This document shows positions 33,221 to 36,897 of a DNA stretch of 64,000 nt, one piece after another. The position numbers and the translations under genes were made by a program. Every line of letters starts with the position of its first letter. Position 1 is the stretch's first letter. Origin of the DNA: Escherichia coli (GTDB lineage: Bacteria; Pseudomonadota; Gammaproteobacteria; Enterobacterales; Enterobacteriaceae); NCBI RefSeq assembly GCF_016026235.1, contig NZ_CP065613.1; one strand, written 5' to 3'. A model generated the notes under the pieces. It was not told where the DNA came from and searched no databases. It worked only from the letters and a program-made list of their open reading frames with translations.

Positions 33221-35603
33221 ATGGCAGATAATCCAGACCCTTCATCGCTCCTGCCGGACGTGTTTTCACCGGCGACCCGCGACTGGTTTCTTCGCGCCTT
33301 TAAACAGCCGACCGCTGTCCAGTCGCAAACCTGGCATGTGGCGGCGCGAAGCGAACATGCGCTGGTGATTGCACCGACCGGCTCCGGGAAAACGCTGGCA
33401 GCATTTCTCTACGCCCTCGATCGGCTCTTCCGCGAAGGCGGCGAAGATACCCGCGAGGCGCATAAGCGTAAAACCTCACGCATCCTCTATATTTCACCGA
33501 TAAAAGCCCTGGGCACCGACGTTCAGCGCAACTTGCAGATCCCGTTGAAGGGTATTGCCGATGAACGGCGGCGGCGCGGCGAAACGGAAGTCAATCTTCG
33601 CGTAGGGATCCGTACTGGCGATACGCCTGCACAGGAACGCAGCAAACTCACCCGTAATCCGCCGGATATTCTGATCACCACACCCGAATCACTCTATCTG
33701 ATGCTGACCTCCCGCGCGCGCGAAACGCTACGCGGCGTCGAAACGGTAATTATTGATGAAGTCCACGCGGTAGCGGGCAGTAAACGTGGTGCGCATCTGG
33801 CGTTAAGTCTGGAGCGGCTCGATGCGCTGCTCCACACCTCAGCACAGCGAATTGGCCTTTCTGCCACTGTGCGCTCAGCCAGCGATGTGGCAGCATTTCT
33901 TGGTGGCGATCGCCCGGTTACGGTAGTCAACCCGCCCGCAATGCGCCATCCGCAGATACGAATTGTCGTACCGGTCGCCAATATGGATGATGTCTCATCG
34001 GTCGCCAGCGGCACCGGCGAAGACAGCCATGCCGGCCGGGAAGGCTCCATCTGGCCATATATTGAAACGGGTATCCTTGATGAAGTGTTGCGCCATCGCT
34101 CGACCATTGTCTTTACTAATTCACGCGGGCTGGCGGAAAAACTGACGGCACGATTAAATGAGCTTTACGCCGCACGCTTACAGCGTTCCCCGTCTATCGC
34201 CGTTGATGCGGCCCATTTCGAGTCGACCTCCGGCGCAACCTCTAACCGTGTACAAAGTAGCGACGTTTTTATTGCCCGCTCACACCACGGCTCCGTCTCT
34301 AAAGAACAACGAGCAATCACCGAACAGGCGCTGAAATCGGGTGAATTACGCTGCGTGGTCGCAACCTCCAGTCTTGAACTGGGGATTGATATGGGCGCGG
34401 TGGATCTAGTGATTCAGGTGGCAACGCCGCTTTCTGTTGCCAGTGGGTTACAACGCATTGGTCGCGCCGGACATCAGGTTGGCGGTGTATCTAAAGGGCT
34501 GTTTTTCCCCCGTACCCGGCGTGATTTAGTCGATTCCGCAGTCATTGTAGAGTGTATGTTCGCAGGCAGGCTGGAAAACCTGACACCACCGCATAATCCT
34601 CTCGACGTCCTTGCGCAGCAAACCGTTGCCGCCGCGGCGATGGATGCATTACAGGTAGACGAATGGTACTCCCGCGTACGCCGTGCCGCACCGTGGAAAG
34701 ATCTGCCAAGACGTGTTTTTGACGCCACGCTGGATATGCTTTCCGGGCGCTATCCCTCTGGCGATTTTTCTGCTTTTCGCCCCAAACTGGTCTGGAACAG
34801 GGAGACCGGGATATTGACCGCCCGACCTGGCGCTCAATTGTTGGCGGTTACCAGCGGCGGCACCATTCCGGATCGTGGCATGTATAGCGTGTTATTACCC
34901 GAAGGTGAAGAAAAGGCCGGTTCGCGGCGGGTGGGTGAACTGGATGAGGAGATGGTATATGAGTCGCGGGTGAACGACATTATCACTCTCGGCGCTACCT
35001 CATGGCGGATCCAGCAAATCACCCGCGATCAGGTGATTGTGACTCCTGCTCCGGGTCGTTCTGCCCGGCTCCCCTTCTGGCGTGGTGAAGGTAACGGACG
35101 TCCGGCTGAATTAGGCGAGATGATCGGCGATTTTCTTCATTTACTGGCGGATGGCGCGTTCTTTTCCGGGACTATTCCCCCGTGGCTGGCAGAAGAAAAT
35201 ACGAACGCCAATATTCAGGGGTTGATTGACGAGCAACGCAACGCGACGGGCATCGTTCCGGGGAGTCGCCATCTGGTCCTCGAACGGTGCCGTGATGAAA
35301 TTGGCGACTGGCGTATTATTTTGCACTCTCCCTATGGAAGACGGGTGCATGAACCCTGGGCGCTGGCGATTGCCGGGCGAATACATGCCCTATGGGGCGC
35401 TGACGCGTCTGTGGTCGCCAGTGATGACGGCATTGTTGCGCGCATTCCTGACACTGATGGTAAATTGCCCGACGCCGCGATTTTTTTGTTTGAACCAGAA
35501 AAGTTGCTGCAAATTGTCCGCGAGGCGGTAGGCAGCTCGGCACTTTTCGCCGCCCGTTTTCGCGAATGCGCCGCGCGGGCATTATTAATGCCGGGGCGCA
35601 CTC
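33221..35603 (+). pseudogene. lhr: lhr (large ATP-dependent helicase-related protein), 5' portion (codons 1-794) truncated by IS insertion
   Basis: Superfamily-2 helicase motifs (APTGSGKT Walker A, DEVH box); ORF continues without stop into the IS; joins in frame with 36908-39141 after removing the IS and one repeat copy (1538 codons in total). Confidence 0.9.
35594..35603. repeat. Target-site duplication (left copy) GGGCGCACTC
   Basis: Identical 10-mer recurs at 36898-36907 immediately flanking the IS (true duplication may be 9 bp with a 1-bp boundary ambiguity). Confidence 0.8.
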
Positions 35604-36897
35604 CTGAGGAATCCCCAGAAAACAAGACAGGCATAGTGAGATGTGATCTAATTGATTGTGCTAACAATTTCAAGGAGATCACCACTATGCCTGCACGTTC
35701 ATTATGCCAAAATTTCCTTAACAACATACTGGCCCCTTTGCATCTTTACCGTCAAAAATCACTGATTGACGCAACTAATGCTGTAATAAATGGCGCTTCC
35801 CTCACACTTACCAGTATCGGGCGTCATTTAACCGGTACGGCATCAGTTAAAAACAAAATAAAGCGGGTGGATCGACTGTTGGGGAATCGACATTTGCAAA
35901 ATGAGGTTTCCACCATTTTTCAGCGAATTACCCAAAAGATTACGCGGGGAATGTCTCGTGTTGTGATACTCATTGACTGGAGTGCTTATCATGCCTCTCG
36001 TTTTCAGCTTTTGCGGGCAAGCCTGGCATGTGACGGGCGTTCTTTACCGTTGATGAGTTGTGTCGTTCCATCATCACAGACAGCGAATGCAGATGTACAT
36101 GAGCGTTTTCTGGAATCGCTTGCTGAGTGCTTTTCCCCCGGGACTGATGTCATTGTTATTACAGATGCCGGTTTTCAGGGGCGATGGTTCCAACAGCTCC
36201 GCTCCCGTGGCTGGACCTATATTTGCCGGGTACTGGGCAATCATTATTACAATGTTGGTAATGGCTGGGAAAAGGTGTCGGACTCAGGCACAAAAGCATC
36301 AACGACAGCAATTTATTTAGGTGAAGGCCTGCTGGGTCGAGATAAAAATGCACAACATGAAGGGCATTTTTATCTTTATAAAAGTAAGCCTAAAGGTCGT
36401 TGATTTAAACGCTCGAAGGAAAGAGCAACCAGACCATCGGTGACGGCTAAAGCTCGTACTGCCGGGAAATCACCATGGTTTATTTTCACAAACAGTACTG
36501 AGTTCTCGCCAAAACAGGTAATGAAATTATACAGCCGTAGAATGCAAATTGAGCAAAATTTCAGGGATGAAAAAAATCCTCGCTGGGGATTTGGACTACG
36601 GTTTGGTGCCAGTCATTCATCCGGGCGGGTCACGGTATTGAGTCTGATCGCAACATTAGCCAGTATCATTATGTGGTTAAGCGGTTTCAGCCTGGAAAAC
36701 AAAGGGATACATCATAAATATCAGGCAAATACAGTGAAGCACAGGCGAGTCATCTCGTTATTAAAACTGGCGGAGAATGTGATTCGACATTCTCCACTCA
36801 TACTAAACACACTGTCACTTGACGCAGGGCTGAAAGTTCTACAGCAACGGTATACCAATATGATAATGGTTTACTAAATTTTCTGGGGATCCCTCAG
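35604..36897 (+). mobile_element. IS4-family, IS10-like insertion sequence (about 1294 bp) inserted in lhr
   Basis: 19-bp terminal inverted repeats CTGAGGAATCCCCAGAAAA (left) and CTGAGGGATCCCCAGAAAA (right, reverse complement); single transposase frame; flanking direct repeat; a second partial copy lies at 1-394. Confidence 0.9.
35687..36877 (+). CDS. IS10-like DDE transposase, frame interrupted by an in-frame TGA at 36401-36403 (segments 35687-36403 and 36404-36877)
   Basis: Blocks resembling IS10 transposase (KRVDRLLGNRHL, SDAGF, YSRRMQIEQNFRD, YQANTVKHR); both segments are in the same frame; the catalytic glutamate region lies after the TGA. Confidence 0.8.

Follow-up and report, generated by a model that had tools for sequence, protein, structure and literature searches.

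The window considered here, a stretch of 64,000 nt of Escherichia coli DNA (RefSeq assembly GCF_016026235.1, contig NZ_CP065613.1), contains the DNA-repair helicase gene lhr in two pieces, separated by a copy of the insertion sequence (IS) ISEc60; the features of the locus are collected in Table 1. The element is assigned to ISEc60 by near-identity over its full length, as 1293 of its 1294 nt match copies annotated as "IS4-like element ISEc60 family transposase", the sole change being T for A at IS nt 798. It possesses the terminal inverted repeats (19 nt, imperfect) and the flanking target duplication required of ISEc60; a 10-bp duplication was found at this copy and at four other checked copies, and is perfect in seven further ones. 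Thirteen insertion sites yield the target consensus G-G-G-W-N-N-W-C-Y-C, which the lhr target fits at six of the six conserved positions. Like IS10-type members of the IS4 family, ISEc60 has terminal repeats that begin CTGA.GAATCCCC and a single DDE transposase with the motif Y-(2)-R-(3)-E-(6)-K, but its target duplication measures 10 bp, in contrast to the 9 bp of IS10.

Table 1. Features of the interrupted lhr locus and of the second ISEc60 copy (positions are those of the window; TIR, terminal inverted repeat; TSD, target-site duplication; SD, Shine-Dalgarno sequence)
Feature	Position	Strand	Basis
Second ISEc60 copy (left end, IS nt 1-394), truncated by the window start, adjoins uidR	1..394	-	Sequence comparison
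Promoter-like site 5' of lhr, within the rnt-lhr spacer (ATGACA, 18-nt spacer, TATAGT)	33144..33173	+	Consensus scan, 10/12; pattern match only
Chimeric ORF	33221..36403	+	ORF listing and translation; deposited protein STL96090.1
lhr 5' fragment (codons 1-794 + 1 nt): RecA1, RecA2, winged helix, start of core domain 4	33221..35603	+	Pfam, NCBIfam
Left TSD, GGGCGCACTC, 10 bp	35594..35603	.	Repeat search
ISEc60 (IS4 family), 1294 bp, same orientation as lhr	35604..36897	+	99.9% identity to annotated ISEc60, full length
Left TIR, CTGAGGAATCCCCAGAAAA	35604..35622	+	Inverted-repeat search; conserved across relatives
IS leader, 83 nt, open in the transposase frame, encodes EESPENKTGIVRCDLIDCANNFKEITT	35604..35686	+	Translation; same peptide in nine other fusion ORFs
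Candidate IS-internal promoter (AAGACA, 17-nt spacer, TCTAAT)	35624..35652	+	By eye, 9/12 matches; putative
Leader hairpin pairing SD (AAGGAG, 35672-35677) and ATG (35687-35689) with upstream leader	35628..35693	+	Inverted repeats and folding
Transposase codons 1-238 (N-terminal region, Asp97, Asp160)	35687..36400	+	Translation, motif
In-frame TGA for AGA (Arg239), end of chimeric ORF	36401..36403	+	Comparison with intact ISEc60
Rest of transposase frame (codons 240-396 + stop), Tyr282-Arg285-Glu289-Lys296; outside chimeric ORF	36404..36877	+	Translation, motif
Right TIR, TTTTCTGGGGATCCCTCAG	36879..36897	+	Inverted-repeat search
lhr 3' fragment (codons 792-1538 + stop): end of core domain 4 and whole C-terminal domain	36898..39141	+	Pfam
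Right TSD, GGGCGCACTC, 10 bp	36898..36907	.	Repeat search

When the IS and one copy of the duplication are deleted in silico, an intact lhr of 4617 nt (1538 codons) is restored, and the insertion is recent, since this restored gene lies only 2 nt from that of FDAARGOS_943, a close relative in which the site is empty and lhr intact; compared with Lhr 1-795 of this relative, the 5' fragment shows zero nucleotide and zero amino-acid differences. ISEc60 has expanded in these genomes, occupying 38 places in FDAARGOS_943, where the copy on the uidR side (zero mismatches to the lhr copy in 394 nt) also has an ortholog, and in the genome that carries the window cadC and motA are likewise interrupted by it. 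The locus is thereby akin to the IS pseudogenes of Shigella and enteroinvasive E. coli, in which an expanded IS family interrupts many chromosomal genes, and differs from them not in kind but in that the interrupted frame here continues into the transposase.

The lhr-ISEc60 junction is found in none of the 5426 complete RefSeq E. coli genomes; its occurrences in other assemblies were located via exact-protein look-ups, and it was found on two lhr alleles that differ by 40 nt and six amino acids. As a test of recombinational import of the IS, the flanks were compared: about 400 bp on either side of the junction are identical in both alleles, and the empty-site relative is identical there too. 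This double occurrence might stem from selection for the loss of lhr and not just from a hot spot. Such selection in a Shigella-like (enteroinvasive-type) lineage, with the IS as a mere tool, would also be in keeping with the interruption of cadC and motA, both classic pathoadaptive losses; however, it should yield a variety of lesions rather than two insertions at one base pair in one orientation, the site is a full match to the conserved positions of the target consensus, and FDAARGOS_943 retains an intact gene, so that selected loss of lhr appears distinctly unlikely.

From the lhr ATG, the ORF listing gives a single ORF of 1060 codons, which consists of Lhr 1-795, a 27-aa IS-leader peptide and transposase residues 1-238, followed by TGA, and translation across the junction proceeds without a stop (...LLMPGRTP|EESPENKTGIVRCDLIDCANNFKEITT|MPARSL...). 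Strictly, lhr contributes codons 1-794 plus one base, and the codon formed at the junction, CCT, restores the native Pro795; the linker is therefore 27 aa long, or 28 if Pro795 is counted in. The original prediction, which gave the ORF the same ends and the composition 794 + 28 + 238, is thus borne out by listing and translation alike, as are its statements that the leader is free of stops and that the 3' 744 codons of lhr are cut off from the promoter. A stop is unlikely to turn up in the leader on re-sequencing, because all 15 other complete copies compared have the identical leader and, over the whole of its length, the L003 locus agrees with the window. The predicted mass of the chimeric protein is 116.3 kDa, and the protein has been deposited, from GCA_900449985.1, as STL96090.1, "ATP-dependent helicase [Escherichia coli]". 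As the frame has no stop and no convincing terminator was found between the promoter-like site of lhr and the junction, translation through the junction is plausible. The 3' fragment, by comparison, lies in a frame different from that of the chimera, has no promoter of its own, and the nearest in-frame stop upstream of it ends at 36822, within the IS.

On the Lhr side, the 5' fragment matches the Pfam families DEAD, Helicase_C, WH_Lhr and DEAD_assoc (positions 1-128 of 191) and covers positions 1-795 of the 1538 of NCBIfam PRK09751, whereas the 3' fragment matches DEAD_assoc 117-191 of 191, WH2_Lhr, WH3_Lhr and WH4_Lhr; the insertion thus splits DEAD_assoc at about 117-128. The superfamily 2 (SF2) motor required of an Lhr helicase, RecA1 plus RecA2 with motifs I, II, III and VI, is present (PTGSGKT 52-58, DEVH 179-182, SAT 214-216, QRIGRAGH 411-418). 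The break point falls inside core domain 4, as residue 795 of the E. coli protein (EcoLhr) aligns to residue 775 of MsmLhr, whose domain 4 spans 530-856. The complete core with winged helix and domain 4 (EcoLhr 1-877) is consequently not found in one polypeptide, and the C-terminal domain (WH2-WH6 and the beta-barrel), to which tetramerisation and the glycosylase residue Asp1536 belong, is encoded by the detached 3' fragment only. The original prediction that the whole SF2 helicase motor is kept thus stands as far as motifs I-VI, the winged helix and Trp620 are concerned, all of them present in Lhr 1-795, but not in the sense of a complete functional unit, which is broken in domain 4.

The shortest EcoLhr fragment with demonstrated activity is 1-877, a monomer (PMC8053096), whereas MsmLhr 1-562, the motor domain alone, shows no ATPase (PMC5758891). 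The Lhr-Core constructs EcoLhr 1-877 and MsmLhr 1-856 resemble the fragment described here in being N-terminal portions of Lhr without the C-terminal domain, and they are monomeric and keep ATPase and translocase activity (PMC8053096, PMC5758891). In contrast, the present fragment ends 82 residues short of such a core, carries 265 foreign residues instead, and is missing the final part of domain 4 and, with it, the counterpart of Msm Arg777, a DNA-contacting residue. Lhr 1-795 may nonetheless have some residual ATPase or translocase activity, as the assayed fragments end outside the span between 563 and 856 (Msm numbering) in which it terminates, and as it keeps Trp620 and every motor motif. 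The C-terminal domain drives oligomerisation (PMC8053096) and, as residues 898-1538, has an Asp1536-dependent uracil-DNA glycosylase activity (PMC10953399).

On the transposase side, the canonical protein is recognized by NCBIfam NF033591 (360 bits, cut-off 152) and by Pfam DDE_Tnp_1 (E = 1.8e-20), the latter giving only a partial match in the fusion. It has the IS4-type DDE residues and the Y-(2)-R-(3)-E-(6)-K motif (D97, D160, Y282, R285, E289, K296), which were assigned by motif, not by structure; a PDB sequence search with the transposase returned nothing significant. Unlike its IS4-family kin, the lhr copy has a nonsense codon at position 239 (AGA to TGA) and is thus not an autonomous ISEc60 with an intact transposase gene, the remaining 157 codons continuing in the same frame to 36877. 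The extent of 1-238 given in the original prediction is correct, but the prediction missed that it is a nonsense codon that sets this end, with the loss of Glu289 and of the YREK motif. Since this codon precedes the catalytic Glu289, the transposase part of the chimera is, judged by these motifs, dead, and this copy of ISEc60, one of many in the strain, is unable to encode a full-length transposase; its mobilisation would require either transposase provided in trans or read-through of the stop codon.

It is puzzling that the same TGA occurs in five other ISEc60 copies of the assembly, six in all, yet related genomes carry intact orthologs of such copies: at three insertion sites that are shared, this assembly has T where GCA_031665325.1 has A, as does FDAARGOS_943 at nupC. 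The TGA at codon 239 could then be unreal, or be read through, so that the product would be a 1218-aa (134.6-kDa) protein made of Lhr 1-795, the leader peptide and the full-length transposase. This full-length version of the lhr fusion exists in at least two other assemblies, no copy 100% identical to the lhr-borne ISEc60 is found among the 5426 complete RefSeq genomes, and UGA is the leakiest stop codon of E. coli. However, the TGA is not a context-specific base-calling error, because Arg239 is retained in the cadC copy of the same assembly; long-read consensus sequences seldom contain substitution errors, and it is in the other assemblies that short-read polishing can homogenise repeat copies. 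An artefactual or leaky TGA is therefore judged unlikely, and it would in any case touch the end of the ORF only, being compatible with a knockout of lhr.

The fusion itself is not peculiar to the way in which the IS landed in lhr, as the original prediction had presented it, but is a generic property of ISEc60: among public proteins, the same leader peptide links nine other host genes to the transposase, the hosts being tssF-like, an FAD oxidase, a phage-like gene, cadC, aldA, ydbC, a fimbrial usher, abgT and, in the 1218-aa version with the full-length transposase, lhr itself. Such recurrence is to be expected, since the transposase frame stays open in about 15% of shuffled versions of the 83-nt leader and, given an open leader, about one in six intragenic insertions has the right orientation and frame. 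Variants with nucleotide identities of 99.9%, 98.8%, 85% and 82% share the open leader frame, as does a Klebsiella copy, the transposase of which has 89% protein identity. By contrast, in-frame stops close the leader 4-10 codons ahead of the ATG in relatives with amino-acid identities of 70%, 64% and 53%, and the notion that the open frame is a conserved design was rejected on this account.

The leader is also predicted to fold into a hairpin (MFE -37.9 kcal/mol, z = -5.8), with a pairing probability of 0.89 for the SD-to-ATG stretch in the read-through transcript, and its stem is kept, mostly unchanged, in seven relatives. In this respect ISEc60 is similar to IS10 and IS50, as its short leader pairs the ribosome-binding site and the start codon of the transposase (ATG at 35687) with upstream sequence; from the work of Davis, Simons and Kleckner in 1985 and of Krebs and Reznikoff in 1986, such pairing is said to shield IS10 and IS50 from outside transcription. 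A comparable hairpin has been described for IS200 (PMC4513863). Transcripts from the candidate IS-internal promoter would start 3' of the 5' arm of the hairpin; a consensus scan reported no promoter within the leader. Unlike IS10, ISEc60 gave no match to an antisense RNA family, RNA-OUT included, in a search of Rfam at a permissive threshold, whose single match, to a human lncRNA model, was at chance level.

These properties of the leader raise the question of whether read-in, in which translation of host genes would bypass the hairpin, matters for the IS, either by supplying additional, N-terminally extended transposase (in the full-length version) or because Tnp 1-238, as a truncated end-binding fragment, damps ISEc60 transposition. 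The sequestration of SD and ATG predicted for read-through RNA, the open frame of the close variants and of the Klebsiella copy, the nine or more fusion ORFs and the six copies with TGA239 would all accord with such a role, and N-terminal DNA-binding fragments do act as regulators in the IS1 and IS3 families. Against it, more distantly related elements lack the open frame, which also has an appreciable expectation by chance, and in Tn5/Tn10-type transposases the extreme N-terminus contacts the end DNA, so that about 820 aa added there would probably be disruptive; a role of this kind is accordingly considered highly doubtful. In a related and still improbable formulation, the open leader of ISEc60 and its close variants would let host translation bypass the hairpin, and TGA239, carried by at least six copies of the genome, would represent an attenuated or dominant-negative variant that is spreading. 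If this were true, about one-sixth of intragenic insertions would place an N-terminally extended transposase under the control of a host gene.

The locus is thus best explained, with high probability, by a recent ISEc60 insertion that knocked out lhr in an IS-rich strain, with the chimera as a by-product and not a new enzyme. ISEc60, a cut-and-paste IS4-family element with IS10-like ends, inserted into a sequence that fits its target preference well, in sense orientation and in frame, and through its stop-free leader the lhr frame continues into tnp up to the TGA at codon 239. Ribosomes starting at the lhr ATG would read across the junction and melt the leader hairpin, which would otherwise hide the ribosome-binding site of the transposase on read-through transcripts. 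The product would be a polypeptide of 116 kDa whose helicase core ends 82 residues early and which also has neither the entire oligomerising uracil-glycosylase C-terminal domain nor Glu289 and the YREK motif, so that a lhr allele without function, accompanied by an inert or unstable by-product, is the likeliest result.

That the chimera is instead a functional new protein, in which a helicase motor is tethered to a transposase DNA-binding domain, is scarcely credible. The chimera does retain the motor motifs along with the winged-helix domain and Trp620, and eukaryotic host-transposase fusion genes such as CSB-PGBD3 do exist (PMC2268245). However, both halves are cut inside conserved domains, the insertion, missing from a near-identical relative, arose very recently, and unrelated host genes yield the same kind of fusion. 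CSB-PGBD3 and SETMAR likewise join the N-terminus of a host protein of DNA metabolism to a transposase-derived DNA-binding module (PMC2268245), but they are conserved, expressed and spliced, whereas the lhr chimera is days to centuries old, with both of its parts truncated and no sign of conservation. The conservation among related genomes that characterizes a domesticated host-transposase fusion gene was not found for this allele, and, with an empty, intact lhr in the close relative, there is no indication that the chimera is being maintained; nor do the sequences give any sign of function of, or selection for, a fusion protein that might be expressed.

The lhr insertion is thus an ordinary IS pseudogene. 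The strain has probably lost Lhr function, and a mild sensitivity to peroxide and AZT would be expected, as lhr deletion causes sensitivity to H2O2 and AZT (PMC10953399). A lesson for annotation also emerges: because the ISEc60 leader is open, gene callers report long chimeric proteins, and these are deposited under the names of the host genes ("ATP-dependent helicase", "aldehyde dehydrogenase A", "putative oxidoreductase ydbC", "p-aminobenzoyl-glutamate transporter"), from where the names can spread via protein clusters. Finally, the target hot spot on two lhr alleles and the six-copy nonsense variant may be of interest for IS dynamics in Shigella-like E. coli.

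ISEc60 has recently interrupted lhr, a non-essential repair gene, in what amounts to an ordinary IS knockout. The ORF listing of the window contains a single ORF (33221..36403, + strand, 1060 aa) that stays open across the junction, as the original prediction of a chimeric ORF had it, and its translation passes without a stop from Lhr (...ARALLMPGRTP) through EESPENKTGIVRCDLIDCANNFKEITT into the transposase (MPARSLCQNF...), with a predicted mass of 116.3 kDa. The composition then proposed, namely 794 Lhr, 28 linker and 238 transposase residues, is correct, with the small refinement that Pro795, specified by the CCT codon at the junction, is the native residue. 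For this exact protein there is one record, STL96090.1 (GCA_900449985.1, contig UGFA01000002.1), which bears the name “ATP-dependent helicase [Escherichia coli]”. Other assemblies encode the lhr fusion with an intact transposase (1218 aa, 134.6 kDa).

The insert matches RefSeq “IS4-like element ISEc60 family transposase” elements over its full length at 99.9% identity. The canonical 396-aa transposase is recognized by NCBIfam NF033591 (360 bits; cut-off, 152 bits) and by Pfam DDE_Tnp_1. D97 and D160 are present in it, and its Y282-(2)-R285-(3)-E289-(6)-K296 motif is perfect. In the same check, 10-bp duplications were likewise found at four other ISEc60 copies, and seven additional copies have perfect ones.

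Features of the lhr::ISEc60 locus (window positions unless stated)
Feature	Position	Details
lhr::ISEc60 junction region	35594-36907	counterpart on the other lhr allele: L003 4001-7657
ISEc60 insert	35604-36897	1294 bp
Terminal inverted repeats of insert		CTGAGGAATCCCCAGAAAA and TTTTCTGGGGATCCCTCAG
Direct duplication flanking insert		10 bp, GGGCGCACTC
Candidate internal promoter (authors' own reading)	35624-35652	AAGACA, 17-nt spacer, TCTAAT

Removal of the IS and of one duplication copy from the window restores an intact lhr of 4617 nt, which differs by only 2 nt from that of the close relative FDAARGOS_943, where the lhr site is empty and yet the window's other ISEc60 copy, adjoining uidR, is shared. 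This near-identity, together with the absence of the lhr::ISEc60 junction from all complete RefSeq E. coli genomes searched, argues that the insertion is young. The same junction, in the same orientation, is also found on a second lhr allele (40 nt different, with 6 aa changes in the first 795 residues). Since the lhr site fits the target consensus G-G-G-W-N-N-W-C-Y-C, built from thirteen duplications (final C in 13/13), at all six conserved positions, the simplest reading is an independent hit at an insertion hot spot; recombinational transfer is a less simple way in which the junction may have arisen.

When compared with intact ISEc60, the lhr copy shows a sole difference, T for A at window position 36401 (IS nt 798); this substitution makes TGA out of the Arg239 codon AGA and ends the chimeric ORF, the remaining 157 transposase codons continuing in the same frame. 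The chimera thus lacks Glu289 and the YREK motif, so that its transposase part, as read from the sequence, cannot be catalytic. An identical 238-aa truncated protein is encoded by five further ISEc60 copies of the source assembly (loci L015-L019, GCA_900449985.1), giving six with TGA, and four of those five have perfect duplications of their own; the cadC copy of this assembly keeps Arg239. In GCA_031665325.1, three orthologous copies (L023, L024 and L027; the duplications are shared by two of them, the mismatched flank pair by the third) have A at this base, as does the nupC copy of FDAARGOS_943, where the codon is intact. Either multi-copy gene conversion among pre-existing copies has taken place, or one assembly set is wrong there.

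As for the helicase moiety, the proposal that the whole motor is retained is only partly right. Motifs I, II, III and VI are present in the Lhr part, as are the winged-helix domain and Trp620, the coupling residue. However, residue 795 aligns with Msm775 (MsmLhr numbering), within core domain 4 (Msm 530-856; PMC5758891), and the insertion breaks Pfam DEAD_assoc (191 positions) at around 117-128. The shortest EcoLhr fragment with demonstrated activity is 1-877, a monomer whose helicase activity is weaker than that of the tetrameric full-length protein (PMC8053096), and ATPase is absent from MsmLhr 1-562 (PMC5758891). A Lhr fragment cut in domain 4 and extended by 265 foreign residues would most likely be inactive or unstable. 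The C-terminal domain (898-1538) has uracil-DNA glycosylase activity requiring Asp1536, and lhr deletion causes sensitivity to H2O2 and AZT (PMC10953399).

A promoter-like site at 36838-36867 (+; TCTACA, 18-nt spacer, GATAAT), close to the IS right end, points outward, toward the 3' fragment of lhr; neither a start codon nor a ribosome-binding site that convinces lies downstream of it, and expression of the detached C-terminal domain from this site appears unlikely.

Folding predicts a strong hairpin at IS nt 25-90 (-37.9 kcal/mol, z = -5.8), which pairs the Shine-Dalgarno AAGGAG and the ATG with the upstream leader (pairing probability from Shine-Dalgarno to ATG of 0.89 when an lhr read-through transcript is modelled). 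All seven relatives compared retain the stem that includes the ATG, mostly unchanged, so that covariation support is weak. In IS10 and IS50, a hairpin over the ribosome-binding site and start codon averts activation by outside transcription. The ISEc60 leader resembles that arrangement, and IS200 carries a comparable element (PMC4513863). Transcripts from the candidate internal promoter would begin downstream of the hairpin 5' arm. Ribosomes would be expected to initiate poorly at the transposase ATG of an lhr transcript, whereas those engaged in translating lhr would unwind the hairpin as they advance, making the chimera the product expected from lhr expression. Translation across the junction is plausible, but a functional helicase-transposase is unlikely, and we give very little credence to read-in translation as a real route of ISEc60 transposase expression or regulation.

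Host fusion is generic to ISEc60, a recurrent by-product. In the canonical element, the open transposase frame begins at IS nt 3, whereas each of the other two forward frames and of the three reverse ones closes within 19 codons. With leader plus transposase as query, a search recovered eight ORFs running from a host gene through the identical leader peptide into full-length transposase (tssF-like; FAD oxidase, in two ORFs that two transposase residues tell apart; a phage-like gene; cadC; aldA; ydbC; and a fimbrial usher), and a cluster look-up added a ninth, abgT. Given an open leader, one in six intragenic insertions yields a fusion of this kind; shuffling the leader leaves this frame open in about 15% of cases. 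Variants with nucleotide identities of 98.8%, 85% and 82% keep the leader open, and so does a Klebsiella copy. In relatives whose amino-acid identity is 70%, 64% or 53% (Salmonella, Yersinia IS1330), in-frame stops interrupt it 4-10 codons upstream of the ATG. These stops led us to reject the open leader as a design feature; it is lineage-specific and probably accidental. Several chimeric ORFs (proteins P0005, P0006, P0121, P0126 and P0159) are deposited under host-gene names, such as aldehyde dehydrogenase A, putative oxidoreductase ydbC, ATP-dependent helicase and p-aminobenzoyl-glutamate transporter, some of them UniRef cluster names, and this naming is an annotation pitfall.

Other copies deserve mention. 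The one adjoining uidR (window 1-394, - strand) is cut by the window start; its FDAARGOS_943 ortholog (L014 42725-45643) has ompG/ycjW rather than uidA next to it, which points to an IS-associated rearrangement or uidA loss. ISEc60 also interrupts cadC, with an in-frame CadC::transposase ORF (P0004, on the window's 4.56-Mb contig), and motA (L015 1151-3342) in the same genome, and database entries for partial ISEc60 proteins are assigned to E. coli O28ac, O124 and LT-68, a profile typical of enteroinvasive, Shigella-like E. coli. Finally, two head-to-tail copies in GCA_031665585.1 (L021 and L022; JARKNL010000002.1, 1015137-1018231), 1304 bp apart with a 10-bp spacer between them, have swapped, nearly identical flanks (GGGATTTTCC and GGGATTTACC) and thus form a tandem IS pair.
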